Shown: positions 3,668-63,272, counted from the stretch's first letter. The stretch is DNA of 64,000 nt from Candidatus Omnitrophota bacterium (GCA_022705945.1 JAKJDL010000005.1:15825-79824), one strand, 5' to 3'. Notes: generated by a model from the sequence alone, not told the origin. Translations and numbers: made by a program.

Positions 3668-4938
3668 TGCGGGTTTTAAAGAAGAAATGGTGTGAGCTGC
3701 TTGATCGGAACCTTGTAAAAACGGGCACTGCTTCAAAAGCGGCCCAGCAGTGGACTCCCAGTTTTAAAAAGAAGCTTCTCCTCGATATGGCGCGCCGTAT
3801 CGAGTTACGCATCGCCCGGATTTTGAAAGAGAATGAAAAAGACGTCGCAAAAGCCAGAGCGGCGGGTTTGTCCGCAAGCATGATTGACCGACTTGTTTTG
3901 AATGAGCAAAGGATCCGGGCCATGGCAAGGGGAGTGCGGATGGTTGCGGATCTTGAGGATCCTATCGGGAGGACGATTAGTGCCTGGACGAGACCCAACG
4001 GCCTTAAGCTGACAAAGGTTTCTGTCCCCCTTGGAGTCATTTTTATCATTTATGAGTCGCGGCCGAACGTAACGGTTGAGTGCGCCTCGCTTTGTTTGAA
4101 AAGCTCGAATGCCGTCATTTTGCGAGGCGGACGGGAAGCCATGGCATCCAACCATGCGTTTGTCAGCCTTTTTCACGAGTCCCTGGAAAAATTTAAAGTA
4201 TCTCCCTATATCGTGAACCTTATCGGAATGACCGACTATGAGGCTGTCGATTATTTGCTTGAACAGGAAGGCCGAATTGACCTTGTGATTCCGCGAGGAG
4301 GCGAAAAGCTGATCCGCCGTGTTGTGGAGCGCTCCCGGATTCCGGTGGTCAAGCATTACCAGGGGATTTGTCATATTTATATCGATAAAAAAGCTAATTT
4401 GAAAAAGGCGTCGCGCATCGTTTTGAATGCAAAAGTTCAAAGACCGGGTGTTTGTAATGCAATGGAGACGCTTCTGGTGCACAGGACGATAGCCCGCAAA
4501 TTCCTGCCGGGGGTCGGTATCGCTCTGAAAAAGGTTGGCTGCGAGATCCGCGGTGATAAAACGACATGCAAGCTTCTGCCGTATGCGATCCCGGCAGCGA
4601 AAAAAGATTATGGCTGCGAGTTTCTCGATAAGATACTTGCGGTTAAAGTGGTTCGTGATATCGAAGAGGCGATCACACATATTGAAACTTACGGTTCCCG
4701 GCATACGGATGCGATCGTAACGGAGGACTCTAGAGCGGCAGAGATGTTTAAGCTGCGGGTCGATTCTTCATCGGTGATGATTAACGCCTCCACCCGGTTT
4801 GCAGATGGTTTTGAATATGGATTTGGAGCCGAGATCGGTATTTCCACCGATAAGATACATGCCCGCGGTCCGATGGGCCTTGAGGGCCTTACGTCTTATA
4901 AATATATTGTGGAAGGGCAGGGGCAGGTCAGGAATTAA
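3652..4938 (+). CDS. proA: Gamma-glutamyl phosphate reductase
   Basis: Aldehyde dehydrogenase-like ProA motifs ('VILRGGREA', 'IPRGGEKLI'). About 420 aa. Overlaps the proB stop. Confidence 0.9.
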   Translation: MERTIMRVLKKKWCELLDRNLVKTGTASKAAQQWTPSFKKKLLLDMARRIELRIARILKENEKDVAKARAAGLSASMIDRLVLNEQRIRAMARGVRMVADLEDPIGRTISAWTRPNGLKLTKVSVPLGVIFIIYESRPNVTVECASLCLKSSNAVILRGGREAMASNHAFVSLFHESLEKFKVSPYIVNLIGMTDYEAVDYLLEQEGRIDLVIPRGGEKLIRRVVERSRIPVVKHYQGICHIYIDKKANLKKASRIVLNAKVQRPGVCNAMETLLVHRTIARKFLPGVGIALKKVGCEIRGDKTTCKLLPYAIPAAKKDYGCEFLDKILAVKVVRDIEEAITHIETYGSRHTDAIVTEDSRAAEMFKLRVDSSSVMINASTRFADGFEYGFGAEIGISTDKIHARGPMGLEGLTSYKYIVEGQGQVRN

Positions 4939-48407: not shown

Positions 48408-49742
48408 ATGTCGCGTTTAGTCAGGGATAAAGTGTTTTTGACGGTTTTTCGTATGGCGGTTCCGATGCTCGCCGGGACCTTCGCCATGAATATGTATAAC
48501 ATGGTCGATACGTGGTTTGTTTCCCGGTTGGGGACCCAGGCGCTGGCGGCGATGTCGTTTACTTTCCCGGTGGTGATGTTCGTCAGTTTTGTGATGCGGG
48601 GAGTGGGGACCGGCGCGATGACGGTGGTCGCCCACGCGCTGGGAAGACAGAAACATCAAGCCGCGGCGAGGATTACGACGCACGCCATTTTTCTGGCGTC
48701 GGGGATTTCGCTCATCCTGACGGGGGCCGGCCTGTTGACCTTTGAACCGCTGTTTCTCCGGCTGGGCGCTTCCGGGGAGGTGCTTGACCTGGCCCGGCAA
48801 TACATGACGATTTGGTATTGGGGGCTCATTTTCCGAGTTCTGCACATCATGCTGGCGGACATTATTATCGGGACAGGGGACAGCAGGACGGTGAGTTTTT
48901 TGATGGTCGGAGGGACGCTTCTGAATTGCGTGCTCGACCCGGTGATGATTTTTGGCTGGGGGTTTTTCCCGAGGATGGGGATCCGGGGAGCCGCGCTGGC
49001 GACGGTGATCGCCGAATTGTTTGTGATGGCGGCGGCGTATTATTTTGTCCACCGGAAATATCATTTAATCTCTTTCGCGGCTTACTCCCGGCGGCGAATG
49101 ATGGCATCCTGGTACAGGATTCTACAGATCGGATCGTCGGCGATGGTAAGCTCCGTCCTGACCCCGGTATCGGCCGCGATTGTAATCAGGATCGTCGCCG
49201 GTTTCGGACGGTCGGCCGTGGCCGCGGTCGGGGTCGCGGCCCGGATTGAAATGTTCGCATTTATGATTCCGATGACGGTCGGGATGTCCCTCGTCCCGTT
49301 TGTCGCGCAAAATTACGGGGCGAAACGTTTTGACCGGATCCGGACGGTGCGGAGGGGAGCGTTCATTTTCGCGCTCGCGTTCGGATTTGTGAGCGCCGGG
49401 ATTCTTCTGCTTATCGCGCGGCCCCTCGGACGGCTGTTTTCTTCGGATCCCGCCGTGGTGGATGTCCTGGTGCGTTATATTTACATCACCTGCTTCGGAT
49501 ACGGCTTCCTGGAAGTACACCGGTACGCGACGTTTTGCATGACCGGCATTCACCGGCCGATGATGGCCACCACCCTGAATGCCATTCGCGTTTTGGTCCT
49601 GATGATTCCGATGGCGTTTTTGGGGGCGAAATGGTTCGGCCTCTACGGAGTTTTCTGGGGGCGGTTGTTGACCGATCTCCTTGCGGCCGGAATCGGGATC
49701 ATCTGGTCGGGAAAAATTCTCAAAAAAATGATCCCCGAGTGA
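48408..49742 (+). CDS. MATE family efflux transporter
   Basis: 12-TM protein with MATE/NorM-DinF family periodicity. 444 aa. Confidence 0.8.
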   Translation: MSRLVRDKVFLTVFRMAVPMLAGTFAMNMYNMVDTWFVSRLGTQALAAMSFTFPVVMFVSFVMRGVGTGAMTVVAHALGRQKHQAAARITTHAIFLASGISLILTGAGLLTFEPLFLRLGASGEVLDLARQYMTIWYWGLIFRVLHIMLADIIIGTGDSRTVSFLMVGGTLLNCVLDPVMIFGWGFFPRMGIRGAALATVIAELFVMAAAYYFVHRKYHLISFAAYSRRRMMASWYRILQIGSSAMVSSVLTPVSAAIVIRIVAGFGRSAVAAVGVAARIEMFAFMIPMTVGMSLVPFVAQNYGAKRFDRIRTVRRGAFIFALAFGFVSAGILLLIARPLGRLFSSDPAVVDVLVRYIYITCFGYGFLEVHRYATFCMTGIHRPMMATTLNAIRVLVLMIPMAFLGAKWFGLYGVFWGRLLTDLLAAGIGIIWSGKILKKMIPE

Positions 49743-49801
49743 CCTTCCGACGCTGTGTTTCGTCAGAACAGGCCTTTTTCAAATTTAAAAAGCCGGGCGC
49801 T

Positions 49802-49940
49802 ATCCTTCCGCTAATTATGTAATGTGTCTCCGGTGTTCTGGGGTATAATTCCGCTTATGTCGAACGATCAGATCATGCCTTCCGGCTATCGAAAGCTTCT
49901 TGCGGAGATTGTCGGTCTCTATGATAGCGCGCGGCGGACG
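49802..49940 (+). repeat. Left 139-bp direct repeat (attL-like) carrying the promoter and first 41 codons of the DUF1016-nuclease gene
   Basis: Identical to 60429-60567 by direct comparison. Contains TGGGGTATAAT and an ATG at 49857. The downstream reading frame diverges after the repeat and terminates at 49988. Confidence 0.9.
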
Positions 49941-49977
49941 ACGCCGGACCTTCCGGATGACCCGTATTTCTTTTTAA

Positions 49978-50532
49978 AGGTCGTATGAGCATAGCGTTTC
50001 ACAGTTAAAATGCCCCGATCTTTACGCGGTGGCTTGTCTGGTGCTCGATTTTTTGAGTGTCCATCCCTTTAGAGACGGTAATGGCAAGGTGGGCAGGCTC
50101 TTGACGCTTCTTGCGCTCTGCCAGCACGGCTATATGGTCGGCAAACATATCAGCCTTGAACGCGTTATTGAGCAGTCAAAAGAAACATACTACGAAACGC
50201 TCAACAAGAGCTCGCAGAAATGACATGAGGCCAAGCATGATGTCATGCCGTGGTTCAATTATTTCCTCGGGACAGTGCTTGCGGCTTATAAGGAATTTGA
50301 AGAACGGGCAGAACAAATAAAACCCGGAAGGGGCGCCAAGACACAAATAGTAACACAGGTCATTGAGCGACAATCCGGCGAGTTTGCTATTTCTGAGATA
50401 CAACGCGAGTGTCCGGGCGTTAGTCGTCCAATGATTCGAGTGATTCTCGAAGAACTTCGAGCCAAGGGGAAGGTTGAGGTGCTCGGAACCGGTAGAAGTG
50501 CCCGATGGCGTAAACGTGATAATAAGTCGTGA
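49978..50532 (+). pseudogene. Fic/DOC family gene remnant: N-terminally truncated at the repeat boundary, with an in-frame TGA at 50221
   Basis: Fic motif 'HPFRDGNGKVGR' (HPFx[DE]GNG[RK]xxR). Two same-frame ORFs (50029-50223, 50245-50532) separated only by TGA. The upstream frame is open back to 49978, but no N-terminal Fic region is present. Confidence 0.7.
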
Positions 50533-50944
50533 AACGTGATAATAAACGTGATAACAACTGAAATGGCTCAATCGGCTCAGTGAGGGATAATAAATTGCTC
50601 AAGTTCCCCGGGAGCGGAAAGGGTTTAAGGGGGTAGGCGGGGCCAAGATTGCTCATATTCAGGCCGCGCTTGAAATCGGGCGGCGCTATCGACAAGGACG
50701 ATGTGTCCACCGGGAAGCAAAAGATCGCCTCTGCCAAGGATGTTGTTGATATATCATGCCACACCTCCGCGACCTCAAAACCGAGATGTTCAAGGTCATC
50801 TGTCTCCATTCAAACAATCGGATTATAGAAATCACAGATGCGATGTCCGGGAAGGTCCAAAAAGGCGTTTTGACGGACATGGATGGACATGATTTTACTG
50901 ACCTGCAATAGATATTCTTCTTGACTCTCAAGCGCACCACACTA

Positions 50945-51010
50945 AAATGTCCACTAATCGGAAATATCCACTAAATAGTGGACATTTAGGGAAAGTAGAC
51001 ATTTAGTAAT
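50945..51010 (+). promoter_or_regulatory. Palindromic operator-like repeats upstream of the wHTH gene
   Basis: 'TGTCCACTAA', 'ATCCACTAAATAGTGGACATTTAG' (perfect palindrome TCCACTA-AAT-TAGTGGA) and 'GTAGACATTTAG'. Repeated half-sites 35-95 nt upstream of the start. Confidence 0.55.
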
Positions 51011-51060
51011 ATCTTGGTTTACAGAGGGCCAAGTAAGGATTGAGTGAAGGAGTTGCTACG

Positions 51061-51735
51061 ATGAAAATACTTTTAGGGGATAAGGCGAACATAATTATAC
51101 GCGCCATGCTATCTCAACCCGATAGGAAATGGGTTGCCAGAGATTTTGAGAAAGAATTTGGCGTGGGGCGCGCGCATGCGGCAAAAGTATTATCAGAATT
51201 GCGCGCCAAGGGGTTTGTCGGAGGAGTCCGGTCTGGCAGGCTCGCGTACAGTATATTACAAAATAAAGAAGAACTTCTCGAGGAATGGCTTAAAGTCTAT
51301 AAGTTTGAGCTTAACGAAGCCCATCTTTATTATTCAACCCGAGAGGATATTCTTTCCCGGCTAAAGGAATATTTTGCGGGAAAGAAAGAGCCCAATCAAT
51401 ACGCACTGACGCTTCATACCGGAGCTAATCTCATTACCAGCTACGTGAATACGCAGACGATATATTGTTACTTGCCGGTAGCGGATTTCAAACGCGCCTC
51501 GCTAGACTTGCGGCAGGTGCTTGATTTGAAGGAATTAAAAACGGGCGGTAATTTCTATTTAATAAACCCATATTATCGAAGCGCCACATTTTTCAATGCC
51601 CAGGCGATCAAAGGCTACAACGTTGTTTCGAATCTCCAGCTTTATTTGGACCTCTACCATTATCCGCAGAGAGGCAGGGATCATGCCGAGTATTTACTCA
51701 AAACATTAAAAGGGGAAGGAAAGCCAATTGCTTAA
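51061..51735 (+). CDS. wHTH-domain protein, AbiEi-like putative antitoxin/transcriptional regulator
   Basis: N-terminal MarR/wHTH-like segment 'DFEKEFGVGRAHAAKVLSELRAKGFVGGVRSGRLAYSIL'. Start taken at ATG 51061 (RBS GAAGGAG); ORF open from 51040. Overlaps the downstream nucleotidyltransferase gene by 8 nt. Confidence 0.5.
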   Translation: MKILLGDKANIIIRAMLSQPDRKWVARDFEKEFGVGRAHAAKVLSELRAKGFVGGVRSGRLAYSILQNKEELLEEWLKVYKFELNEAHLYYSTREDILSRLKEYFAGKKEPNQYALTLHTGANLITSYVNTQTIYCYLPVADFKRASLDLRQVLDLKELKTGGNFYLINPYYRSATFFNAQAIKGYNVVSNLQLYLDLYHYPQRGRDHAEYLLKTLKGEGKPIA

Positions 51736-52519
51736 AGAATTCCCGGGAGAAAAACTTCTCATTAAAGTTATAGACGATCTGGCTGATTTTTTGCCGTACC
51801 TTGTTCTGGTCGGCGGTTGGGTGCCGTACATTTATGCCAAACACATGTGGAAAGACATCCCCAATATGGCAGTGACTACCGGAGATATTGATTTCGGTGT
51901 CGGAGATCATGATTTTAAAGGGAAGGATACCGTTGCTTCTCGGGTGCAACGATTGGGATATGGCGAGCGTCACGTTTCAATGGACAGATTGATTCCCTTT
52001 GTGCCTATTGTGAAAGATTCATCGGGAGATGCTAAAGCAGAGGTCGAATTTATTACCGATCCCAAGGTTTCCCGGAAAGTCATCAATAAGATCGTTGGTC
52101 AAGAGATCAAGATTAATGAAATCCGGCATTTCAGCCTGTTGCTTGGCTCTGTCATGCCGGTAAAAATGAACGGTAAGAGTATTCAGATACCGACAGAATC
52201 GATGTTTGTTTTCCATAAACTGCTGACGTTTGTGGATCGGGAAAATAAGGCTAAACTCAAGAAGGATCTTTATTACGTTTATTATATGATCAGATTCAGT
52301 CCGACAAAGGCGCAGCTTTGTGACGACGTGGTCGGCCTTATCAAAAAACTTAAAGAAGGCAGACAGGTCAAAGAGAATCTCAAAGAGTATTTTGCCAGCG
52401 TTGATTCGAAGGGGCCATTATTTGTTGAGCAGGAAAACGGCCCGGACGCTTATGTTGCGAACGTAAGAGAAGACGCGTTTGAAAAGTTCGGAGATATTCG
52501 GCGAAGGGTTGAGGAATGA
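51728..52519 (+). CDS. Nucleotidyltransferase-fold protein, AbiEii/DUF1814-like putative toxin
   Basis: 'LVLVGGWVPYIY...TGDIDFGV' fits the minimal nucleotidyltransferase GS/GG...DxD pattern. 263 aa. Translationally coupled to the wHTH gene. Confidence 0.5.
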   Translation: MLKEFPGEKLLIKVIDDLADFLPYLVLVGGWVPYIYAKHMWKDIPNMAVTTGDIDFGVGDHDFKGKDTVASRVQRLGYGERHVSMDRLIPFVPIVKDSSGDAKAEVEFITDPKVSRKVINKIVGQEIKINEIRHFSLLLGSVMPVKMNGKSIQIPTESMFVFHKLLTFVDRENKAKLKKDLYYVYYMIRFSPTKAQLCDDVVGLIKKLKEGRQVKENLKEYFASVDSKGPLFVEQENGPDAYVANVREDAFEKFGDIRRRVEE

Positions 52520-53120
52520 GAGCCTTCGCCATCGGTGACGTCCACGGCGCCTACAAGGCGATGATGCGGTGCTTTGAGCGTTCAAAGTTCGATTATAAGA
52601 AAGACCGCCCGATCGTGATGGGCGATGTTTGCGACGGGTATCCGGATGTCAGACAGCGCATTGATGAGTTATTAAAGATCAAGCATTGTGATCTGATCAT
52701 TGGAAATCATGATATGTGGGCGCTGGACTGGGCCTTGTGAGGCGACACCCCGGAGATATGGAGAAGCCAAGGCGGCGACCGGACAATGGCGTCGTATAAC
52801 GGCGGACCTATGCCGCAGGCGCACATCGACTTCCCAAAAACGGACATCTTTGGTTGGAACTTGGGAATAAACTTTTTGTCCATGCCGGTTTTGTGCCGGA
52901 TTTGCCATTGGAGCAAGATAGCGTTCAGGTACTTGTGTGGGACAGGTATTTACTCAAAGACGCGTGGGAAGCGGATAATTATAGACGGGAAGCGCAGATC
53001 ATAAAATATGACGACATTTTATCGGACACACGACAACAGAGCTTTATAGGACGCTTGAGCCGCTTCATGTTTGCAACGTGTGGGATTTGGACACCGGCGC
53101 CGGTTGGTCAGGCAAGCTGA
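52516..53120 (+). pseudogene. Fragmented calcineurin-like metallophosphoesterase (Ser/Thr phosphatase/ApaH-like)
   Basis: 'AIGDVHG...GDVCDGYP...GNHDMW' (motifs GDxHG, GDxxDRG-like, GNHD/E) in 52516-52740. The C-terminal 'LFVHAGF' piece is in another frame (52854-53120). At least two frameshifts or stops. Confidence 0.6.
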
Positions 53121-53353
53121 CGATTATGATGGATATTGATACAAAGGAATACTGGCAATCGGAGTTATCAAAAGATTTATACGGCGGGACACCGGGCAAT
53201 TTAGCTGGGACGAAATAATATGAACTACTGGTGGACATCGGGTGCGTTCACGAGAAATATAAGATCAAGCGAGAGGCCGGATGATACTTGTTCTTGAGTG
53301 AACGCCGGACACCGTCCGGCAACAGAAACCATAAGTCATGAAAGAGGTTTTAT

Positions 53354-54976
53354 ATGCAATGGATAGCGCCTGCAGAAAAGAATGAAGCGAACGATCTTCT
53401 GGAAAAACGGCTGTGGGACGCCGCCGATCAGCTCCGGGCTAACTCCGGCCTGACTTCAGCCCAATACTCCCAGCCCGTCCTTGGGCTTATTTTCCTACGG
53501 TTTACCGACAGCCGGTTCAAGGTCCAGCAGGCCAAGATAAAAAAAGCAGGTAAGACCTCCCGGCGCGGATCCCGCGTCGAAGATTCTGCCGCCTATCACG
53601 CCGAAGGCATCCTGTATCTGGCGCCCGGAGCCAGGTTCGACGAGCTCCTTTCATACCCTGAAGGCGGTAAAGGCGGAAAGTCGCTCGGCCAGGCGATCAA
53701 CGAAGCCATGAGGAATATCGAGCGTGATAACCCTCAACTCGCCGGTGTCCTTCCCAAGACCTACGAAACCTTCGAGGCTCGGATCCTTGCGGAGCTTCTT
53801 AAAGTTATTTCCACGATTCCGTCTGACCTTGAAGGCGACTCCTTCGGAAAGATCTACGAATACTTTCTGGGTGAATTTGCCATGACCGAAGGACAAGCCG
53901 GAGGAGAGTTCTACACGCCGACGGCTATTGTCCGGTTGATCGTCGAGATTCTCGAACCGTTCCATGGGCTTATCCTTGATCCTGCCTGCGGATCGGGCGG
54001 TATGTTCGTCCAAAGCGCTCGGTTTGTGTCAGAACACCGGAAGAATCCTTCGAGCGAAATCAGCATCCACGGACAGGAGAAAGTAGACGCCACAGTCCGC
54101 CTCTGCAAGATGAACCTCGCGGCGCACGGTCTTGAAGGAGACATCAAGCAGGCCATTACCTATTACGATGACCTCCACAAGAGCACAGGCCGGTTCGACT
54201 TCGTTCTCGCCAATCCTCCGTTTAACGTCAATGCCGTGGACAAGGAACGTCTCAAAAGTGACGTCGGCCCGGGCAAACGCTTCCCGTTCGGGTTGCCACG
54301 CACAGACAACGCGAACTATCTCTGGATCCAGCTGTTTTATTCGGCGCTGAACAGTAAGGGCCGCGCCGGTTTTGTGATGGCTAACTCCGCGTCTGATGCG
54401 CGCTCTTCCGAACAGGAGCTTCGCAAAAAGCTCATCGAAGACCGTGCTGTTGATGTGGTGATCGCTGTCGGGCCGAATATGTTCTACACCGTGACGCTCC
54501 CGTGCACGCTCTGGTTTTTGGATAAAGGGAAGAAGAAAACACCGCGAGCGGATACGGTTTTGTTCGTTGATGCGCGGCAAATTTATCGACAAATATCAAA
54601 GGCTCAAAGAGACTGGACTCCGGCGCAGATCAGTTTTATCTCCAATATTGTGCGGCTCTATCGTGAAGAAGAACCCGACTTTACCCTTGGCAGGGATGAA
54701 GCGGCCAAGCGGGTTTCCGAAGCCTTCGGAAAGAAACCCCAATACAAGGACATCCCAGGTCTTTGCAAGGTTGTGACGATCAAGCAAATTGAAAAACAGG
54801 GCTGGTCGCTCAATCCCGGCCGCTACGTTGGTGTTGCGCCCGGTGGAACCCTCAGCAACGAGGACTTCAAGGAGCAGTTTGAAACTCTGAACGAAGAACT
54901 TGAAACCTTGAATGTTCAGGCCCGCAAACTTGAGCAAACCATCGCTCGCAACGTGACGGAGATTCTAGAGGCATGA
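53354..54976 (+). CDS. hsdM: Type I restriction-modification system, DNA methyltransferase subunit
   Basis: HsdM N-terminal '[13 protein letters not shown]...VLGLIFLRF'. SAM motif '[11 protein letters not shown]'. Catalytic 'NPPF'. 540 aa. Confidence 0.9.
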
Positions 54977-56175
54977 CGAAGGTCGAGCTCCGCACAGTTC
55001 GAATTGGTGACTTGGGCCGCGTCATCACCGGCAAGACACCACCGAGCGCCTACCCAGAACTGTTCGGGGAGGAATTTCCGTTTCTTACCCCTACAGACAT
55101 TGACGGTGTTGCGCGTTACATCGAACCAGAACGCTTCCTATCGCTAAAGGGATACGATCACCAGCAACAACTGCTTCTTCCGCCGCGCTCTGTCTGTGTT
55201 GTTTGTATTGGCGCTACGATCGGCAAAGTCTGCATGACCAACAAGCCATCGTTTACAAACCAGCAAATCAACTCCGTCGTTGTGAACGAAAGGGAACATG
55301 ACCCCATTTTTGTTTACCACCTTCTTACGACCTTGCGCGATGAGTTGAAATTAAATGCTGGTGGCGCTGCGACGCCGATCATTAACAAGACAGCTTTTTC
55401 AGAGATCGAAATCAATGTCCCGACATTGCTGGAGCAGCAGCGGATTGCGAACATTTTGTCGGCTTACGACGAACTGATCGAGAACAGTCAGCGGCGCATC
55501 CGGATATTGGAGACGATGGCCCGTGCTCTTTACCGTGAATGGTTCGTCGATTTTCGTTTTCCCGGCCACGAAAAGCATCCCCTTGTTGCCTCATCCATTG
55601 GCAATATCCCCAAAGGCTGGGAGGTCAAAAAACTCAAGGATGTCGGTCGCCTCACAATGGGTCAGTCGCCCAAGTCAGAGTTCTATAACGAGACGGGAGA
55701 AGGTCAGCCATTCCATCAGGGGGTGACCGATTTTGGTGATCGCTTTCCAACCGACCGCTTGTTTTGCGCCATCGAGGGGCGCGTTGCTGAAGCTGGCGAC
55801 ATTCTGTTTAGTGTTCGTGCTCCCGTCGGACGCATGAACATTGCTGATAAGAAAATCATCATTGGTCGTGGCTTGTCCGCTATCCGAGATAACAACGGCC
55901 ATCAATCCTTTCTCTGGGAGCAGTTGCGCAACCGTTTTGCTAAAGAAGACATGATGGGTAACGGTGCAATCTTTGCAGCAGTAACAAAAGATGATATGCA
56001 AGGCATCGAGTTGCTTTGTCCGCCGCAATCACTCGTTGTGGATGCCGAGAAGCACCTTGTTTCGATTCACGAAAAAGTTAGCATTCTCACTCGCCAAATT
56101 CAAAACCTCCGCCGCACCCGCGATTTTCTTTTGCCGCGATTAATGTCGGGACAATGTAATCTTCAGGAGGTTTAA
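54973..56175 (+). CDS. hsdS: Type I restriction-modification system, specificity subunit (two TRDs)
   Basis: Overlaps the hsdM stop. Duplicated TRD architecture with conserved central and C-terminal coiled-coil repeats ('[29 protein letters not shown]', '[22 protein letters not shown]'). Confidence 0.85.
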
Positions 56176-56315
56176 GTCGTGGCTCTTCCGCACAGATTCA
56201 TTTTGATGGCGAGTTTTATTAACGAGGGAGCTTTTGAGGAATCGATTGAACAAAGTCTGACCCCCAATCGCGGGGGTGAAAGGAATACCAGGGGAAATTG
56301 AAAAGAGGAAATGAA

Positions 56316-56951
56316 ATGGCTTATATTTTTCTTGATGAATCGGGCGACCTAGGTTTTGATTTTACGAAAAAAGGAACTACCCAGTATTTTGTAATCACAC
56401 TGCTCTTTGCGGATCACAAACGACCTATCGAAAAATGTGTCCGCACGGTTCACGCGCACTTGCGCAAGAGATTCAGGCGAATAGGAGGCGTTCTCCACGC
56501 GTGCAAGGAGGAAGACGTTACACGGCAGAGATTGCTACGATGCCTGTCGCAAAAGAATTGTGCCGTTATGACAATTTATCTCAACAAGAAGAGAGTTTAC
56601 ACGCGCCTACAGGATGAGAAAGCGGTCCTTTACAATTATGTGACGAACATATTGCTTGACCGGATTTTTACGAAGAAATTGGTTTCCTCCGACGACATTC
56701 ATCTGATTGCCTCCAAACGGGAAACCAACAAATTCCTTAACGAAAATTTCAGGTCCTATTTGAGACGGCAAATGATTGTAAATCATACTCGCAAAATTGC
56801 GGTTGAAATTCGGACACCGGCTGAAGAAAAAGCCTTGCAAGCGGTGGATTTTGTGAGTTGGGCAATATTCCGAAAACCGGAATGGCGGGATGATGTTTAT
56901 TACAACACGATCAGGGGAAAGATTGTGGAGGAGAATCCGTTATTCCCCTGA
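56316..56951 (+). CDS. DUF3800-family protein inserted between hsdS and hsdR
   Basis: 'MAYIFLDESGDLGFDF' is the DUF3800 hallmark. RBS AAGAGGAAA. ORF open from 56298. Confidence 0.65.
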   Translation: MAYIFLDESGDLGFDFTKKGTTQYFVITLLFADHKRPIEKCVRTVHAHLRKRFRRIGGVLHACKEEDVTRQRLLRCLSQKNCAVMTIYLNKKRVYTRLQDEKAVLYNYVTNILLDRIFTKKLVSSDDIHLIASKRETNKFLNENFRSYLRRQMIVNHTRKIAVEIRTPAEEKALQAVDFVSWAIFRKPEWRDDVYYNTIRGKIVEENPLFP

Positions 56952-57160
56952 AAATGGTAAAGCCTCATTCGCTGTTTACGAGGAACCCTGCGGAACCCCA
57001 CGAATGAGGACTTACTTACCGCACAAACTATAGCATTTTATTCATGATGATGCAATGCGCTATTTGATTAAAAATTACAATGTAAACCTAAAAAAGCTCA
57101 AAAAAAGCAAAAAAAAGCTTTAACTAATTTAGACTCAATGAGTTACTATTTGACGGTTAT

Positions 57161-60100
57161 TTGATTGCTGGGAGACAACGAATGCCCCATGATTATTCCG
57201 AAGACCAACTTGTAGAGCAGCCGGCGATACGGCTCTTTAAGGAGCTTGACTGGGACACGACTTCAGCTCTTGAGGAAGTCCTTGGTCCAGGTGGGACGCT
57301 GGATCGTGAAACGAAGTCAGAAGTTGTTCTCATCTCCCGGTTGCGCGCAGTACTTGTCCGACTGAATCCCGCGTTACCACCTGAAGCCATCACAAGCGCC
57401 ATTGATGAACTGATTCGCAACCGTTCGGCGACGAGTCTTGCCGGCGCTAACCGCGAAGTCTCTGAGCTTCTCCGGGAAGGTGTAAAGGTTTCGGTTTCTG
57501 ACCGTGAGCACGGCGGGCAGAAGACGGAGAGAGTTCGGATCATTGATTGGGATAATCCCGCGTCCAACGACTTCCTTCTTGTCAGTCAGTTCACTGTAAC
57601 CGGGCCGTTATATACCTGCCGGCCGGATCTGGTGGGATTTGTGAACGGGATTCCGTTTGTGGTGATCGAACTGAAGAAGCCCGGCGTTCCTGTCCAGCAG
57701 GGGTTTGACGATAATCTGACCAGCTATAAACATCCGCAAAACGGTATTCCGCAACTCTTCTGGTATAACGCGCTCCTTATCGTCTCAAACGGCACGGACA
57801 GCCGTGTCGGGTCTGTTACGGCCGGATGGGATCATTTCGGGGAATGGAAACGCGTGAAAAGCGAGGCCGAACCACGCACGGTATCGCTTGAAAAGATGAT
57901 ACGCGGGACCTGCGCCAAAGAACGGCTGTTGGATCTAGCTGAAAACTTCACCGTCTTTTCGGAACAAAGAGCCGGGCTTTTGAAAATCTTGGCGCGAAAC
58001 CATCAGTATCTTGGTGTTAATAATGTGTTGTCGGCTCTTCAGGATGTCAAACGAAAGCACAGTCAGCTTGGTGTGTTCTGGCACACGCAAGGTTCGGGCA
58101 AGAGTTTTTCCATGGTCTATTTTTCTCAGAAGGTTCTGCGGAAGATACAGGGGAACTGGACTTTTGTCATAGTGACTGACCGGACGGAACTGGACGATCA
58201 GATCTACCGGACTTTCAAGGCGTGCGGTGCTACGAGCGAACATTGTCAGGCCGAAAGCTCCGCACATTTAAGACAGCTTCTTGGCGAGAATCACCGGTAT
58301 GTTTTTACTCTCATCCACAAATTCCGAACCGAGAACGGGACTCCTCATCCGATATTGAGCGATCGCAATGACATCATCGTGTTGACCGACGAAGCCCACA
58401 GGAGTCAATACGACACGCTGGCGCTCAACATGCGGACGGCTTTGCCCAACGCTTTGTTTCTTGCCTTTACCGGCACGCCGCTCATTAAGGGCGAAGAAGA
58501 ACGGACCCGTGAAGTCTTTGGTGATTATATTTCGGTCTATGACTTCCAGCAGTCGGTTGAGGACGGTGCGACTGTTCCTCTGTTCTATGAAAACAGGACG
58601 CCCGAATTAAGACTGAAGAACCCGGATCTGAATGACCAGATTTATGATCTGATCGATGAAGCGGGGCTGGATCCGGCTCACGAAGAACGGTTGGAGCAAG
58701 AGCTGGGACGGCAGTATCACATTATTACCCGCGATGACCGTCTGGATACGATTGCCCAGGACATTGTCCGAAACTTTCTGGGGCGGGGGTTTATCGGTAA
58801 GGCGATGGTCGTATCGATCGATAAGGCAACGGCGCTCCGGATGCATGACAAGGTCCGGAAGTATTGGGCGGAAGATCTCAAGAGAACACAGAAGGAATGG
58901 GATGAGATCACATCTTCCGGAGACAAGTATGATTCGGAAAAGAGGCGTGTCCTTGAAGAACGGTTGAAGCTGCTTAAAGAGACCGACATGGCCGTTGTGG
59001 TCTCGCCGGGGCAGAATGAGATCGAACAAATGAGAGCTCTCGGGCTTGATATCGTTCCGCACCGGGAGCGGATGAACAGAGAGCCTCTGGATGAGAAATT
59101 TAAGGACCCGAAAGATCCATTCCGGATCGTGTTCCTTTGCGCGATGTGGCTCACCGGTTTTGATGCGGAGTGTTGCTCGACTATTTATCTGGACAAGCCG
59201 ATGCGGAACCACACTTTGATGCAGACCATCGCCCGGGCGAACCGTGTTTTTCCCGGTAAATACAACGGTTTGGTCGTGGACTATGCGAATGTTTTTGCGT
59301 CCCTGGAGCGGGCGCTTGCGATTTACGGTAAGAGGAAAGGTGGAGAAAGGCCGGTCCGAGACAAGAAAAAGCTCGTTGAAAATCTCCGGAAGGCGGTTGA
59401 GGATGCGGTGAAGTTCTGTGATAAACACGGGGTCAGTATCAAGTCGATCGAAAAGATACCGGCCGGAACGATGGACAGGCTTACCGCTATTGCTGAAGCG
59501 GTTAACCCGCTCATTTCGCCGGATAAGGTGCGAAAGGACTTTTTCGCCGCAGAGAAGCTGGCAATGACACTTTATAACGCGGTTAAACCGGATCCGGTGG
59601 TCCTGGAATTTTCTTCCAGAATTAGCTGTCTTGCGACCATTGCGAATGTTATCCGGGAACGGACCGGCGGAAATGTTCCTGTCGATATCACGGCCATTAT
59701 GGGGGATATTAACCGCCTGCTTGATGAGTCGATTGAAGCTGAGGGCTTCAGGATCAGGGAAAAGACAGGTAGCGGGATCGAAGGCGTTATTGATCTCAGC
59801 CGGATTGATTTCGAGGCCCTGGCCAGGCAGTTCAAGAAATCCAAGTGCAAGAATCTGGGGCTGGAGTCGCTAAAGGCGGCGATCCGCGCCCAGCTGGAAC
59901 GTCTGATCCGGCTTAACAGGAACCGTGCTGATTATCTGGCTAAGTTCGAGGAGCTGATCGAGTCTTACAATGCGGGGAGCCGGAATATCGAGGAGTTGTT
60001 CAGGGAACTTCTGGTTTTCAGCCGGTCGTTGAATGAGGAAGAGAAGAGGCATGTTCGGGAAAACCTGAGCGAAGAAGAACTGACGATTTTTGATGTTCTG

Positions 60101-60379
60101 GTCCGCCCCGGTCCGGATCTTTCATCCGACGAGCGGGAGCAGGTCAAGAAGGTAGCCAGGGAGCTCCTTCAAAGGCTTCGGTCTTTATTTGTGATCAACT
60201 GGCGGGAAAGGGTTCAAACCCGAGCGCGGGTGGTGGAAGCCATCAAGGATGAACTGGATCGACTCCCGGGTGGATACACGCAAGACCTTTACCAGCTAAA
60301 ATGTTCAGCCGTGTTTGAGCATGTCTACGAGAGTTACTTTGGCGAGGGTAATAGCGTTTTTGTATCTTCGCAATCCTGA
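57161..60379 (+). CDS. hsdR: Type I restriction enzyme, R (endonuclease/translocase) subunit
   Basis: HsdR N-terminal nuclease region. SF2 helicase motifs ('HTQGSGKS', 'VLTDEAHRSQY', 'FTGTPL'). 1072 aa. Alternative ATG at 57182. Confidence 0.9.
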   Translation: MIAGRQRMPHDYSEDQLVEQPAIRLFKELDWDTTSALEEVLGPGGTLDRETKSEVVLISRLRAVLVRLNPALPPEAITSAIDELIRNRSATSLAGANREVSELLREGVKVSVSDREHGGQKTERVRIIDWDNPASNDFLLVSQFTVTGPLYTCRPDLVGFVNGIPFVVIELKKPGVPVQQGFDDNLTSYKHPQNGIPQLFWYNALLIVSNGTDSRVGSVTAGWDHFGEWKRVKSEAEPRTVSLEKMIRGTCAKERLLDLAENFTVFSEQRAGLLKILARNHQYLGVNNVLSALQDVKRKHSQLGVFWHTQGSGKSFSMVYFSQKVLRKIQGNWTFVIVTDRTELDDQIYRTFKACGATSEHCQAESSAHLRQLLGENHRYVFTLIHKFRTENGTPHPILSDRNDIIVLTDEAHRSQYDTLALNMRTALPNALFLAFTGTPLIKGEEERTREVFGDYISVYDFQQSVEDGATVPLFYENRTPELRLKNPDLNDQIYDLIDEAGLDPAHEERLEQELGRQYHIITRDDRLDTIAQDIVRNFLGRGFIGKAMVVSIDKATALRMHDKVRKYWAEDLKRTQKEWDEITSSGDKYDSEKRRVLEERLKLLKETDMAVVVSPGQNEIEQMRALGLDIVPHRERMNREPLDEKFKDPKDPFRIVFLCAMWLTGFDAECCSTIYLDKPMRNHTLMQTIARANRVFPGKYNGLVVDYANVFASLERALAIYGKRKGGERPVRDKKKLVENLRKAVEDAVKFCDKHGVSIKSIEKIPAGTMDRLTAIAEAVNPLISPDKVRKDFFAAEKLAMTLYNAVKPDPVVLEFSSRISCLATIANVIRERTGGNVPVDITAIMGDINRLLDESIEAEGFRIREKTGSGIEGVIDLSRIDFEALARQFKKSKCKNLGLESLKAAIRAQLERLIRLNRNRADYLAKFEELIESYNAGSRNIEELFRELLVFSRSLNEEEKRHVRENLSEEELTIFDVLVRPGPDLSSDEREQVKKVARELLQRLRSLFVINWRERVQTRARVVEAIKDELDRLPGGYTQDLYQLKCSAVFEHVYESYFGEGNSVFVSSQS

Positions 60380-60428
60380 GTGTACCGGGATCTATTCTCA
60401 AAGCCGCAAATTTCAAAAGCAAGATACC

Positions 60429-60567
60429 ATCCTTCCGCTAATTATGTAATGTGTCTCCGGTGTTCTGGGGTATAATTCCGCTTATGTCGAACGATCAGAT
60501 CATGCCTTCCGGCTATCGAAAGCTTCTTGCGGAGATTGTCGGTCTCTATGATAGCGCGCGGCGGACG
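60429..60567 (+). repeat. Right 139-bp direct repeat (attR-like), forming the 5' end of the intact DUF1016-nuclease gene
   Basis: Identical to 49802-49940. Confidence 0.9.
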
Positions 60568-61482
60568 CTGGTTCACGCGCACTGGGAGATCGGAAAGCGG
60601 ATTGTCCGGATTGAGCAGGACGGCGCCGCCCGCGCGGCTTACGGGGCGGGACTGCTTGTGAGGCTCTCTGAGGACCTGACCCGGGAAAGAGGAGTCGGGT
60701 TTTCGCCGAGCAGTATCAAGCGGTTCCGGCAGTTTTATCTGTTGCACCCAAAAGGTGCGCCGGCGCACCTTTTGACCTGGGCGCATCACGCGGAGCTTCT
60801 CACGGTCCGTGACCGAAAGACCCGGTTACTGCTCGAAAAACGCGCGGATGAGCAGGGGATGACCCGTGATGAACTGCGAAAGTTGATCCGCGAAAGGCGC
60901 GGAATTGGAAAAGGCGATCGGGGTGAGGTCGCTGACGGGACGCCCCTTGTCCCGAAAAAGGGACCGCTCGGCCTTTATCAGATCAGAAGCGGAGCTGACA
61001 TCGGGTGGCCGCGGTCCGGCGTGCTTGTTTTTGACCACGGGTTTCGTTTTTATGATGCGCTGGACGACACGCAGGCGCAAGGTCTCGCGGCGGGTGATTT
61101 TGTGGAGGAGCGGGACGGTAAGCTCGTGAAGGCGGATCAAGCGAAGCGGCCCGGTTATACCTACACGGCTTATTTGCAGGAGGTGATCGACGGGGACACG
61201 CTCCGGGTCGCGCTGGATGCGGGGCTTGGAGGAATTGCCCGTCAAAAGCTGCGCTTGCGCGGGATCGACTGTCCCGAGATCGATACGCCGGAAGGGAAGG
61301 CCGCGAAAGTGTTTGTCGAGACTGTCCTGGAGGAAATTTCCTCGATGACCGTTTACACCTCAAGGAATGCCACTCACGACCGCTATGAGGCGGATGTGTT
61401 TTTTAATGACCAAGACGGCCGGGAAGTTTTCCTGAACGGTCTTTTGCTGGACACGCGACACGCCGTCCGGATGAAGAGGTAA
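60484..61482 (+). CDS. DUF1016 (YhcG-like) N-terminal domain fused to staphylococcal-nuclease (SNase/thermonuclease) domain
   Basis: N-terminus 'YRKLLAEIVGLYDSARRTLVHAHWEIGKRIV...SIKRFRQFY' matches the DUF1016 N-terminal pattern. C-terminus 'VIDGDTLRV...RLRGIDCPE...GKAAKVFVE' matches SNase. The TATAAT lies only about 8 nt upstream of the ATG (possible leaderless transcript). ORF open from 60451 (GTG). Confidence 0.7.
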   Translation: MSNDQIMPSGYRKLLAEIVGLYDSARRTLVHAHWEIGKRIVRIEQDGAARAAYGAGLLVRLSEDLTRERGVGFSPSSIKRFRQFYLLHPKGAPAHLLTWAHHAELLTVRDRKTRLLLEKRADEQGMTRDELRKLIRERRGIGKGDRGEVADGTPLVPKKGPLGLYQIRSGADIGWPRSGVLVFDHGFRFYDALDDTQAQGLAAGDFVEERDGKLVKADQAKRPGYTYTAYLQEVIDGDTLRVALDAGLGGIARQKLRLRGIDCPEIDTPEGKAAKVFVETVLEEISSMTVYTSRNATHDRYEADVFFNDQDGREVFLNGLLLDTRHAVRMKR

Positions 61483-61483
61483 G

Positions 61484-61600
61484 ATGAAAGTGCTGTCAAA
61501 GACTTTCAGCTGCCCTGATTCCTGTTTATCTCAAGGGAGATCAGGACTGCAAAAGTCCCGGTAAATGAATGAAAGTATTATTGAAGACTTTCGGCTGGCC
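61484..61600 (+). promoter_or_regulatory. Two copies of an imperfect palindromic about 33-bp motif (TGAAAGT-N10-ACTTTCA) upstream of the DUF4062 gene
   Basis: ATGAAAGTGCTGTCAAAGACTTTCAGCTGCCC (61484-61516) and ATGAAAGTATTATTGAAGACTTTCGGCTGGCC (61566-61598). Confidence 0.5.
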
Positions 61601-61718
61601 ATTGGCCCCGCGTTTACACCCGCCTTTGCGCCATACTTTTTAAGCTCTACCCGTGAGCAGTTTGGTATAATCCGCAAAGGTTCGTGGCGTTTTTAATCGT
61701 GTGGCAGGGGAAGGCAAA

Positions 61719-63272
61719 ATGACCAAGCGCAAGATATTCATCAGCAGCGTTCAGAAGGAGTTCAAGGATGAGCGGGCCGCCTTGAGGGATTTTATCTCCG
61801 GCGATCCCTTGTGCAGGCGCTACTTTGACTGTTTTCTTTTCGAAGATATTCCCGCCCAGGACCGCAGGCCGGACGCCGTCTATATCGATGAAGTCAGGGA
61901 TTGCGATATCTATGTGTGTCTTCTCGGCAATGAATACGGAGCTGAAGATGCCCGCGGATCTTCGGCTACGGAGCGGGAATTCAGGGAGGCGACGGAGCGC
62001 GGAAAGACGCGGCTTCTTTTTGTCAAAAACACGACTGAAAAAGACCGTCACCCTAAAACAGCTAAATTGATCAACAGAGCCGGCAACGAGGTTATTCGCC
62101 GGAGGTTTTCCAACGCCCCGGAATTGATCTCGCAACTGTATGCAGCCCTTGTGCAGTATTTGGAGGAGCAGTGTCTTTTGCAGACCGTTCCGTTCGATGC
62201 TGCTTCCTGCCGCAATGCTGTTTTGGGCGACATTGACGAATCTGCCGTTGGGAATTTTCTTGAGGCTGCCCGGGCCGAACGCAAGTTCCCCTTGCCGCCA
62301 CGCACTTCGGCGAAAAAGCTTTTCACTCATTTGAACCTATTCAATAACGGCAAGCTGACGCATGCCGCGGTCCTGTTGTTCTGCAGGAATCCCCAGAAGT
62401 TCCGCGCCCTGTTATGTGCCGAGGTTAAATGTATGCATTTTCACGGGACCGAGGTGCAAAAGCCGATCCCTTCGTACCAAACCTACCGGGGAACATTGTT
62501 CGAACAGGTTGATGAAGCTGTTGATTTCGTGCTCGGTAAACTGGATCGCACGGTCACGCCCAGCAAAACCGCTGTTGCGAGCGATGTATCGTATGAGATA
62601 CCCAAAATGGTGATCCGCGAAGCAATCGTTAACGCGGTCGCGCATCGGGATTACACATCCAACGCAGGCGTTCAGGTCATGCTGTTTGCGGATCGACTTG
62701 AGATCTGGAACCCAGGGGCACTTCCTGAAGGGATGACGCCGGCGACCCTACGGAAAGCCCATGCCTCTGTGCCGAGAAACCCGCTGATCAGCGATCCGCT
62801 TTTCTGGGCGAGATACATTGAACGGGCGGGAACCGGAACGATCGACATGATCGCTCTGTGCAAGAAAATGAAGATCCCGGAGCCTTCGTTTCAGCAGCGG
62901 GGAGGTCAGTTCGTCCTGATAATCCGTCGCAAGAAGAAGGCCCCTCCGAAAGCCCGGCCCATCACCCACGAGGTTCAGGGACCAAGTCGGCACCAAGTCG
63001 GCACCAAGTTGGCACTAAGTCAGCACCAAGTTGAGATATTGCATAAGTGTCAGGCTGAGAGCAGGATAGCCGATCTCATGAAGATCACTGGGCGGACAGA
63101 TCGCACCAAGTTCAGGCATCAGGTGCTTAGTCCTCTCGCAGATGCGGGATTGATCGAAATGACGGTTCCTGACAAACCCCAAAGCAGTAATCAGAAGTAC
63201 CGGTTGACGGAAAAAGGGGTTGCGTATTTACAAGGGCGCAAAAGGGCTGCGTGCTTCACGGCAAAGTTGTGA
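61719..63272 (+). CDS. DUF4062 - AlbA_2 (Schlafen-like) - HATPase_c_4 - wHTH protein
   Basis: N-terminus 'KIFISSVQKEFKDERAALRDFI...CDIYVCLLGNEYG' (DUF4062 pattern). Central AlbA_2-like region. 'IREAIVNAVAHRDY' (HATPase_c_4). C-terminal wHTH. RBS GGGGAAGG. ORF open from 61701. Confidence 0.65.
   Translation: MTKRKIFISSVQKEFKDERAALRDFISGDPLCRRYFDCFLFEDIPAQDRRPDAVYIDEVRDCDIYVCLLGNEYGAEDARGSSATEREFREATERGKTRLLFVKNTTEKDRHPKTAKLINRAGNEVIRRRFSNAPELISQLYAALVQYLEEQCLLQTVPFDAASCRNAVLGDIDESAVGNFLEAARAERKFPLPPRTSAKKLFTHLNLFNNGKLTHAAVLLFCRNPQKFRALLCAEVKCMHFHGTEVQKPIPSYQTYRGTLFEQVDEAVDFVLGKLDRTVTPSKTAVASDVSYEIPKMVIREAIVNAVAHRDYTSNAGVQVMLFADRLEIWNPGALPEGMTPATLRKAHASVPRNPLISDPLFWARYIERAGTGTIDMIALCKKMKIPEPSFQQRGGQFVLIIRRKKKAPPKARPITHEVQGPSRHQVGTKLALSQHQVEILHKCQAESRIADLMKITGRTDRTKFRHQVLSPLADAGLIEMTVPDKPQSSNQKYRLTEKGVAYLQGRKRAACFTAKL

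Follow-up and report, generated by a model that had tools for sequence, protein, structure and literature searches.

A predicted AbiE/MenT-like toxin–antitoxin operon of Omnitrophota with a coupled and locally inactivated lambda/NinI-like phosphatase gene

Positions 50921-53218 of a 64,000-nucleotide (nt) stretch of DNA from Candidatus Omnitrophota bacterium (GCA_022705945.1 JAKJDL010000005.1:15825-79824; hereafter, the window) form a single compact unit on the + strand, comprising a promoter, four operator boxes, and three coupled genes for a winged helix-turn-helix (wHTH) protein, a nucleotidyltransferase (NTase), and a metallophosphatase. We read this locus, with a probability of about 55%, as a toxin–antitoxin operon of the AbiE/MenT superfamily, belonging to a COG4861-COG4849-like branch and equipped with a phosphatase that would reverse phosphorylation of the toxin. 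An initial annotation of the DNA had placed three open reading frames (ORFs) here, and all three were found in the window sequence at the positions it gave. The window holds the three-gene variant only as a wreck, in which the phosphatase gene is broken; its value is as a pointer to intact systems in other genomes. The features of the locus and its surroundings are listed in Table 1.

The first product is strongly supported as a protein of the two-domain AbiEi-type build, with a winged helix at the N-terminus and AbiEi_2 as the C-terminal domain. Its C-terminal domain (residues 66-212) matched Pfam AbiEi_2 (PF09952, formerly DUF2186, a JGI name) with an E-value of 2.7e-7 and 31.4 bits against a cut-off of 21, and near-identical relatives carry the NCBI name 'type IV toxin-antitoxin system AbiEi family antitoxin'. 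The likeness to AbiE proposed in the initial annotation, which hinged on whether there was any similarity to AbiE-type proteins, is borne out by both of these results. We take AbiEi_2/DUF2186 to be the Pfam counterpart of COG4861. In an AlphaFold2 (AF2) model, the N-terminal wHTH was confident and the rest was poor (mean predicted local distance difference test score, 51.8). The search returned 561 homologues, and the start codon at 51061 was preferred over a TTG at 51040 because the homologues are 224 residues long. The wHTH gene overlaps the NTase gene by 8 nt (51728-51735), and the antitoxin-first order is the same in all relatives. Pairwise ratios of nonsynonymous to synonymous substitution rates (dN/dS) were 0.06 to 0.09 for the wHTH gene and 0.014 to 0.05 for the NTase gene; this sequence comparison indicates that purifying selection on both is strong in the window lineage and that they are still maintained.

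The second product is predicted, again with strong support, to be an NTase of the Pol-beta fold that stands structurally nearest to JHP933 and to MenT1, MenT3, and MenT4, which are toxins that modify tRNA. Its predicted fold was closest to the MenT/TglT/JHP933 toxins, and the top five structural matches were all DUF1814-type NTases, several of which are proven toxins. By sequence, the protein scored 35.7 bits against Pfam NTP_transf_8 (PF12281; cut-off 26.3), and the NCBI name within its 90% cluster is 'GSU2403 family nucleotidyltransferase fold protein'. The link to the MenT toxins came from the fold comparison only; a search of the NTase sequence against Protein Data Bank (PDB) chains returned nothing at E ≤ 10, and one against the PLSDB plasmids returned nothing at E ≤ 1e-3. 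The motifs GGW (residues 29-31) and GDIDFG (residues 52-57) can be read as motif I (VGGW) and motif II (D53-I-D55), and motif III (K164-L-L-T-F-V-D-R171) fits the COG4849 signature KLxAaxxR (PMC3985639). Motif IV (+DxxD) is half conserved, being represented only by K179-D180-L-Y-Y with the second Asp missing. The resemblance to AbiEi/AbiEii pairs seen in the initial annotation is supported, with the caveat that the Pfam family of the NTase is NTP_transf_8 and not AbiEii.

A threonine, T51, stands two residues before the catalytic D53 (T51-G-D53) and was invariant in 41 homologues. The structure model places it in a loop (residues 41-53) ahead of strand beta-2 (residues 54-58). The phospho-acceptor of MenT1 is T39, in T39-R40-D41 (PMC11375011), and by analogy T51 fits the position equivalent to the phospho-acceptors T39 of MenT1 and T65 of AbiEii. 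A phospho-acceptor directly after the GG of motif I, where the window protein has Trp, was also considered and was rejected because the phospho-acceptor in the published systems is a Ser/Thr that precedes the catalytic Asp by two residues.

A single promoter serving three translationally coupled genes is strongly supported by the sequence. The sigma-70-type promoter was the top-scoring + strand site in 50500-53500 and is followed by an operator array (50945-51004) of four predicted 13-nt boxes with the consensus AAATGTCCACTAA, two direct and two inverted, spaced 17 nt from start to start, the whole being an imperfect palindrome of 60 nt. Box 4 is the second copy of direct-repeat family D2, listed at 50994-51006 in a register 2 nt off, and is better conserved in related loci than in the window. 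The palindrome described in the initial annotation is present at the junction of boxes 2 and 3 (TCCACTA/TAGTGGA), with a 2-nt AA spacer instead of the AAT given there, and it is the core of the larger four-box array. Matches to the box with up to two mismatches numbered four in the 64-kb window, and three of these lay within 43 nt at the operator. We regard the boxes as beyond chance because three of the four window-wide matches cluster here and because the array is kept in more than 30 related loci, at the same spot relative to the TTGAC(T) and TAAAAT elements. In a wHTH subfamily at 50% identity, the boxes upstream of the wHTH gene read GTTCAC, not GTCCAC, at the same promoter position (L054, L063-L068, and L094), and the wHTH protein and its boxes thus appear to have co-evolved. 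Conservation and co-variation of this kind are expected of putative binding sites of the wHTH protein. The layout, overlapping the -10 hexamer and the start region, would suit autorepression of the AbiEi kind, which has been demonstrated experimentally for AbiEi (PMC3985639). A search of 49500-53600 against Rfam found no RNA family at E ≤ 0.1, so that nothing points to an RNA antitoxin or a riboswitch.

The type of the phosphatase was judged from intact orthologues. Their sequences strongly support the view that the third gene, ancestral to the operon and now inactivated in the window, once specified a cytoplasmic binuclear metallophosphatase of the lambda/NinI-like kind. The top match of the phosphatase profile was lambda phosphatase (1g5b, E = 2.7e-15), followed by ApaH (6e-11), with a weak match to the phosphatase domain of Clostridium thermocellum Pnkp (4j6o, E = 5e-4). 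The intact protein lies above the Pfam Metallophos cut-off and aligns collinearly with PrpB-type Ser/Thr phosphatases from end to end. In phage and plasmid collections, the best annotated-genome matches were phage 'NinI-like serine-threonine phosphatases' with 35 to 43% identity, and plasmid matches were below 31%. The clade does not look like a typical phage gene, because a scan of IMG/VR gave one distant relative only (43% identity). The GDVHG and GNHD motifs can still be recognized in the window, at residues 7-11 and 63-66. Intact phosphatases keep a Cys and a Tyr in motif II and lack the phosphate-binding Arg of lambda-PP/PPP/ApaH enzymes.

The phosphatase frame of the window opens at 52516, where an ATGA sequence provides a 4-nt overlap with the NTase stop codon. 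We defined its lesions against L031, the closest intact orthologue, which has 92% nucleotide identity and whose first two proteins are 96 to 97% identical. They comprise a nonsense codon (CGA to TGA) at 52738-52740; two 1-nt deletions, one after 52840 and the other in a T-run at about 53017; an in-frame 3-nt ATG insertion at 53126-53128; and amino acid changes, e.g., L32P, at positions that do not otherwise vary. The dN/dS against L031 was 0.21, compared with pairwise values of 0.064 to 0.089 among intact copies; because of this rise, the gene seems to have drifted under relaxed constraint since its inactivation. The initial annotation had called the gene frameshifted, which holds for the two deletions and understates the rest of the damage; its picture of a dead phosphatase beside two intact genes agrees with the low dN/dS of the latter. 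That the disruption is an artefact of sequencing or assembly and the gene truly intact is next to impossible: two lesions are indeed 1-nt deletions at or beside short homopolymers (A5 and T5), but another is a base substitution giving TGA, the changes at invariant residues and the raised dN/dS add to it, very long ORFs (e.g., 3384 and 1208 residues) run unbroken elsewhere in the window, and independent assemblies rule out sequencing error as the origin of the frameshifts, since Logan assembly L114 matches 50665-53345 (2681 nt) at 100% identity, all lesions included, and ENA contig L115, with 3 mismatches, has the same nonsense codon and the same truncated ORF of 74 residues.

Behind the pseudogene lies a short remnant of a second metallophosphoesterase gene. 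This gene directly follows the phosphatase gene in L031, L111, L067, and L068, and an ORF of 126 residues intervenes in L003. The intact products (L003, L031, L067, and L068) are 178 to 191 residues long and match Pfam Metallophos, a PdeM-like NCBIfam entry, and PDB 1xm7 (Aquifex aq_1665-like). With its phosphatase dead, the window module should act as a plain two-gene system, like several natural relatives.

The initial annotation had suggested that other genomes be searched for the intact three-gene arrangement, and the search showed that it is common. Using the NTase as the query, we collected 20 genome loci, mostly from Omnitrophota metagenome-assembled genomes (MAGs) and also from Planctomycetia, Deltaproteobacteria, and Elulimicrobium. 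The wHTH and NTase genes were intact and coupled in all 20. The phosphatase gene was intact in nine (L010, L011, L020-L023, and L026-L028), present and cut by the contig end in two (L009 and L014), absent from four (L017, L018, L024, and L025), and reduced to a remnant in five, with lesions that were all different: an internal deletion in L012, and only the first 22 codons in L013, the first 24 in L015, the last 29 in L016, and the first 64 in L019. Judged from these sequences, the phosphatase has decayed independently at least six times, the window counted. The remnants that persist in several two-gene relatives indicate that the third gene is ancestral in this clade, as the initial annotation had allowed.

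A second set was chosen on phosphatase similarity alone and consisted of 80 metagenome loci with 75 to 96% identity to the query, of which about 59 were informative after removal of duplicates and contig-edge loci. An NTase gene lay directly upstream of the phosphatase gene in 46 of the ~59, mostly with a 4-nt stop-start overlap. This neighbor was an NTP_transf_8 gene in 29 loci (three subfamilies, mutually about 40% identical or less) and a true Pfam AbiEii gene in 17 (at least three subfamilies), so that the phosphatase-linked NTases represent at least six lineages; exact 4-nt overlaps occurred in at least five. The partner antitoxins were AbiEi_1, AbiEi_2, AbiEi_4, or a small non-wHTH protein, and the same phosphatase family also followed true AbiEi_4-AbiEii pairs. 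In four exceptional loci (L076, L036, L050, and L035), the 3' end of an NTase gene was found just before the phosphatase start. A neighbor-joining tree of the phosphatases mixed the NTase types, e.g., L031 (NTP_transf_8) was sister to L029 (AbiEii). Because the tree ignores NTase type, we infer that the phosphatase has been swapped repeatedly among toxin modules while its coupled position was kept.

Several of the related loci have further rearrangements. In L061 (929-1222) and L086, an ORF of 97 residues (MQYVYVLQSTKDGKWYTG...), GIY-YIG-like by eye, lies exactly between the AbiEii and phosphatase genes, and it may be a small mobile element. Second AbiEi-AbiEii pairs were seen 0.2 to 1.2 kb downstream of the unit in L013 (5225-6943), L071 (4108-5627), L072 (5319-7014), and L016 (5920-7573); in L013 the second pair takes the place of most of the phosphatase gene, and a P-loop kinase gene comes next. 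In L050 (about 3024-4544), L051-L053, and L082, the toxin was lost and the phosphatase kept, which is the reverse of the state in the window.

MenT toxins extend tRNA 3' ends, and by extending them the NTase would block translation. The antitoxins MenA1 and MenA3 induce auto-phosphorylation of MenT1 at T39 and of MenT3 at S78, respectively (PMC11375011). Likewise, AbiEi induces auto-phosphorylation of AbiEii at T65, which abolishes its activity; in vitro, the activity returns on treatment with a Ser/Thr phosphatase, and the authors left open what phosphatases do for AbiEii reactivation in vivo (bioRxiv 10.64898/2026.01.19.700257). Under our reading, the AbiEi_2 protein would repress the operon and neutralize the NTase, at least partly via induced auto-phosphorylation of T51, and the coupled phosphatase would remove the phosphate from T51, so that stockpiled toxin would become active again; the phosphatase would thus be a built-in part for re-arming or tuning. 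Because of this recent literature on AbiEii/MenT phosphorylation, analogy suggests that the likelier substrate of the phosphatase, which the initial annotation pictured as reversing or controlling the modification made by the NTase, is the phosphorylated toxin itself and not the product of the toxin. If the phosphatase were an accessory part that the core module can do without and that makes self-intoxication more likely, its repeated loss with the other two genes kept would be explained. More tentatively, we propose a three-part form of AbiE/MenT, sometimes four-part with a P-loop kinase, in which the operon-encoded lambda/NinI-like phosphatase is a dedicated re-activator of the phospho-silenced toxin, one that has moved between at least six lineages of NTase and been lost again and again.

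Several points weigh against this reading, and they are given in this and the next two paragraphs with the alternatives that they favor. Toxicity, phosphorylation, and the substrate of the phosphatase are all things that we infer from sequence. MenT4 is not phosphorylated by its own antitoxin, and phosphorylation is thus not universal in the superfamily. The tree that is independent of NTase type also means that recognition of the toxin by the phosphatase must be generic; it would suit a common small or RNA substrate. An intact orthologue fell below both NCBIfam equivalog cut-offs, with about equal scores for PrpB (60.6 versus 326 bits) and ApaH (70.6 versus 176 bits). Motif II is an invariant GDVCDGY (residues 36-42), without the Arg found in the GDxxDRG of protein phosphatases, and 2',3'-cyclic phosphodiesterase activity is reported for lambda phosphatase (PMC2190708). 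Because of the missing Arg, the ApaH-like score, and this activity, a nucleotide or RNA-end substrate is possible. Moreover, a P-loop kinase gene (AAA_18/AAA_33) directly followed the phosphatase gene in 15 of the 63 loci with an identifiable downstream gene, and other loci add the PdeM/aq_1665-like phosphoesterase; these partners recall RNA end-healing enzymes. The phosphatase might accordingly act on nucleic acids or nucleotides instead of the toxin, healing tRNA ends (2',3'-cyclic or 3'-phosphates) or cleaving dinucleoside polyphosphates, and so prepare, limit, or undo the effect of the NTase, together with the kinase or second phosphoesterase of the relatives; the ApaH and Pnkp matches of the profile point the same way. 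We consider this unlikely, although it is the best of the alternatives. MenT/AbiEii toxins add nucleotides to a 3'-OH, and a phosphatase cannot take them off; no ligase or other known RNA-repair protein was seen in any locus; the accessory kinase matched PDB and NCBIfam entries at the level of the P-loop only; and size and full-length collinearity suit lambda-PP/PrpB (about 220 residues) and not ApaH (about 280 residues). Phosphatase-reversible phosphorylation of a toxin, by contrast, has a precedent (bioRxiv 10.64898/2026.01.19.700257).

The phosphatase may also have no functional link to the toxin, the phosphatase, kinase, second phosphoesterase, and small ORFs all being cargo in a recombination hot spot downstream of toxin–antitoxin modules in defence islands. 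Contexts with neither an NTase gene nor a remnant close by were few, namely a divergent phosphatase clade beside purC (L084 and L107) and a phosphatase beside a Bro-N gene (L096), and in L050-L053 and L082 the NTase gene was deleted save its 3' end, with the AbiEi_2 gene and an intact phosphatase gene kept. The region past the NTase is highly mosaic, the NTase 3' remnants and swapped modules speak for frequent recombination, and the window neighborhood, with its Fic and RadC fragments and type I restriction-modification (R-M) genes, is a decaying defence island. We nonetheless hold this explanation to be improbable: the NTase gene stands directly before the phosphatase gene in 46 of about 59 loci that were sampled independently of it, with the exact overlaps in several lineages noted above, whereas the other accessory genes have no such fixed position, and the dN/dS of intact phosphatase genes indicates purifying selection.

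Finally, the locus might not be a toxin–antitoxin system, the wHTH protein being an ordinary repressor and the NTase and phosphatase a benign modifying or repair set, e.g., for tRNA 3'-end maintenance or small-molecule nucleotidylation. We know of no NTP_transf_8/GSU2403 protein with experimentally shown toxicity, and our search found no published characterization of PF12281 or GSU2403 proteins. The NTase had no match to Pfam AbiEii (PF08843) at E ≤ 1; L063, a divergent NTP_transf_8 relative, had a weak one (E = 0.0064). PADLOC gave no meaningful match for any of the three proteins and no AbiE match for the NTase, and the half-conserved motif IV (KDLYY) also favors a benign role. An hhalign comparison of the NTase alignment with an AbiEii alignment from the related loci gave a probability of 0.7%; because both alignments are shallow (Neff 1.7) and of low diversity, we took this null as uninformative and not as counter to homology. 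There is little probability in this explanation as well, as the AbiEi_2 domain at the C-terminus of the wHTH protein is one found specifically in partners of the antitoxin type and the closest structural matches of the NTase include proven toxins. The pair also spreads horizontally among MAGs of Omnitrophota, Planctomycetia, and Deltaproteobacteria (65 to 97% identity) and sits in defence islands, and its gene order, overlaps, and putative autoregulatory repeats are as in AbiE (PMC3985639).

Table 1. Coordinates of the predicted operon and of neighboring features in the 64,000-nt window
Feature	Position	Strand	Remarks
MatE gene			In the decaying defence island
Single ORF	27030-37184	+	3384 residues
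Fic-family gene in at least three ORFs	49824-50532		Second pseudogene upstream of the operon; Pfam Fic, E = 7.6e-7
RadC-like JAB remnant	~50690-50911		Frameshifted; directly upstream of the promoter; Pfam RadC, E = 9e-4
Sigma-70-type promoter	50921-50948	+	TTGACT-16 nt-TAAAAT; 10/12 consensus positions
Operator box 1	50945-50957	+	AAATGTCCACTAA; overlaps the -10 hexamer
Operator box 2	50962-50974	+	AAATATCCACTAA; left arm of the central palindrome TCCACTA-AA-TAGTGGA
Operator box 3, inverted	50975-50987	-	AAATGTCCACTAT on the - strand; right arm of the central palindrome
Operator box 4, inverted and degenerate	50992-51004	-	AAATGTCTACTTT on the - strand; read from sequence
Ribosome-binding site	51047-51052	+	AAGGAG; 8 nt before the wHTH ATG; read from sequence
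wHTH/AbiEi_2 (COG4861-like) gene	51061-51735	+	224 residues; predicted antitoxin and autorepressor
NTase gene (NTP_transf_8/GSU2403 family)	51728-52519	+	263 residues; predicted MenT/AbiEii-like toxin
Lambda/NinI-like metallophosphatase pseudogene	52516-53218	+	Lesions relative to L031; intact orthologues 229-233 residues
PdeM/aq_1665-like metallophosphoesterase remnant	53220-53297	+	26 codons, MNYWWTS...; DNA alignment with L031 and L111
hsdM (type I R-M)	53354-54976
hsdS (type I R-M)	54973-56175
DUF3800 gene	56298-56951		Inserted before hsdR in the type I R-M system
hsdR (type I R-M)	57161-60379
DUF1016 gene, then DUF4062/HATPase_c_4/Fic-like_C gene	Within 53354-63272		After hsdR

Among the Fic fragments upstream of the operon, one carries a HPFRDGNGKVGR motif and another has a DIP2311-like C-terminal wHTH. 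The RadC-like remnant contains a stretch about 70% identical to the RadC of L029. A radC gene lies downstream of the AbiE-phosphatase unit in L029 and L012, and in L029, where the unit is of the AbiEi_4-AbiEii-phosphatase type, it likewise stands beside type I R-M genes; the window module may have inserted between radC and hsdM. Accessory genes recur in varying order in the related loci. Those downstream of the phosphatase gene include one for a protein of 126 residues without an assigned family, present in 10 loci (e.g., L003, 5586-5966), and one for a Cys-rich protein of 146 residues (L032, 2858-3298); a protein of 155 residues (MPMIKCTDEQ...; L012, 5071-5538), PRiA4_ORF3, and an AP_endonuc_2-like TIM barrel were also seen. 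Further example loci are L032 (3295-4017) and L035 (3248-3961).

Work from 2020-2026 describes MenT/AbiEii toxins that are turned off by antitoxin-induced auto-phosphorylation and turned back on by phosphatases in vitro. A set of operons with a coupled phosphatase across several toxin and antitoxin families would be a cloneable candidate for the missing reactivation step, and the phosphatase-less lineages, the window included, would serve as natural controls. If our proposal is true, the phosphatase would be the first case of an enzyme for re-arming the toxin that is itself encoded inside a type VII toxin–antitoxin system. It would also hint that the phage NinI/lambda phosphatase, the natural role of which is to our knowledge unsettled, meets phosphorylation-controlled host toxins. 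In addition, GSU2403/NTP_transf_8 NTases, which are missed by current defence-system finders, group structurally with MenT/AbiEii toxins.

Compared with known systems, the module resembles AbiE of Streptococcus agalactiae and Lactococcus (COG5340-COG2253, AbiEi_x with AbiEii/DUF1814) in having two overlapping genes, the first for a wHTH antitoxin and the second for a Pol-beta-fold NTase, in the antitoxin build of a wHTH and an AbiEi-family C-terminal domain, in the inverted repeats at the promoter, and in NTase motifs I-III with a Ser/Thr placed two residues ahead of the catalytic Asp. It differs in that the window NTase belongs to NTP_transf_8 and has an incomplete motif IV, and in that the AbiE operator consists of two 23-bp inverted repeats, whereas the window has four 13-bp boxes; the AbiE models of PADLOC miss the module. 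Described AbiE systems have no third gene. The initial annotation had placed the phosphatase outside described AbiE systems, and we likewise found no paper linking a phosphatase to AbiE/MenT, nor published work joining AbiEii or DUF1814 with metallophosphoesterase-type terms.

A closer counterpart is the COG4861-COG4849 wHTH-NTase pair, predicted as an AbiE-related sister by Dy et al. 2014 (PMC3985639). The window pair shares its DUF2186/AbiEi_2 partner and its KLxAaxxR-type NTase motif, an assignment made by Pfam and motif. The two-gene core was thus already predicted as a kind, and the window sequences fit that branch. MenT1 of Mycobacterium tuberculosis is a COG4849-type toxin whose T39-R40-D41 matches the T-x-D of the window; its antitoxin is non-wHTH, unlike that of the window, and no phosphatase partner has been reported for the COG4861-COG4849 pair. 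Type VII systems (MenA3/MenT3, also TakA/TglT; MenA1/MenT1; and AbiEi/AbiEii as reclassified in 2026) share the toxin fold and the conserved phospho-acceptor position, and in vitro reversal by the Ser/Thr phosphatases PstP and SaSTP has been published. Those phosphatases are unlinked housekeeping enzymes of the PP2C type, whereas the one described here is lambda-type (PPP-like) and encoded in the operon, and phosphorylation of the NTase here is predicted.

Lambda phosphatase (NinI) and Escherichia coli PrpA/PrpB are like the window family in size (about 220 to 230 residues), in the GDxHG and GNHD motifs, and in the 1g5b profile match; the family is set apart by its motif II (GDVCDGY), by NCBIfam scores far below the cut-offs, and by its context in an NTase toxin operon. 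Pnkp RNA repair also combines a lambda-like phosphoesterase and a P-loop kinase with a nucleotidyl-transferring enzyme, as in some of the related loci. There, however, the parts are fused and not separate proteins, the nucleotidyl-transferring enzyme is a covalent ligase and not a Pol-beta-fold NTase, and Hen1 has no counterpart here; the profile match is weak. Neither the kinase nor the ligase of Pnkp-type repair is present in the window, the kinase occurring in some relatives only and the ligase in no locus. As far as we found, AbiE/MenT systems with such a phosphatase partner, which is conserved, has been shuffled, and was lost repeatedly, are a hitherto undescribed variant.

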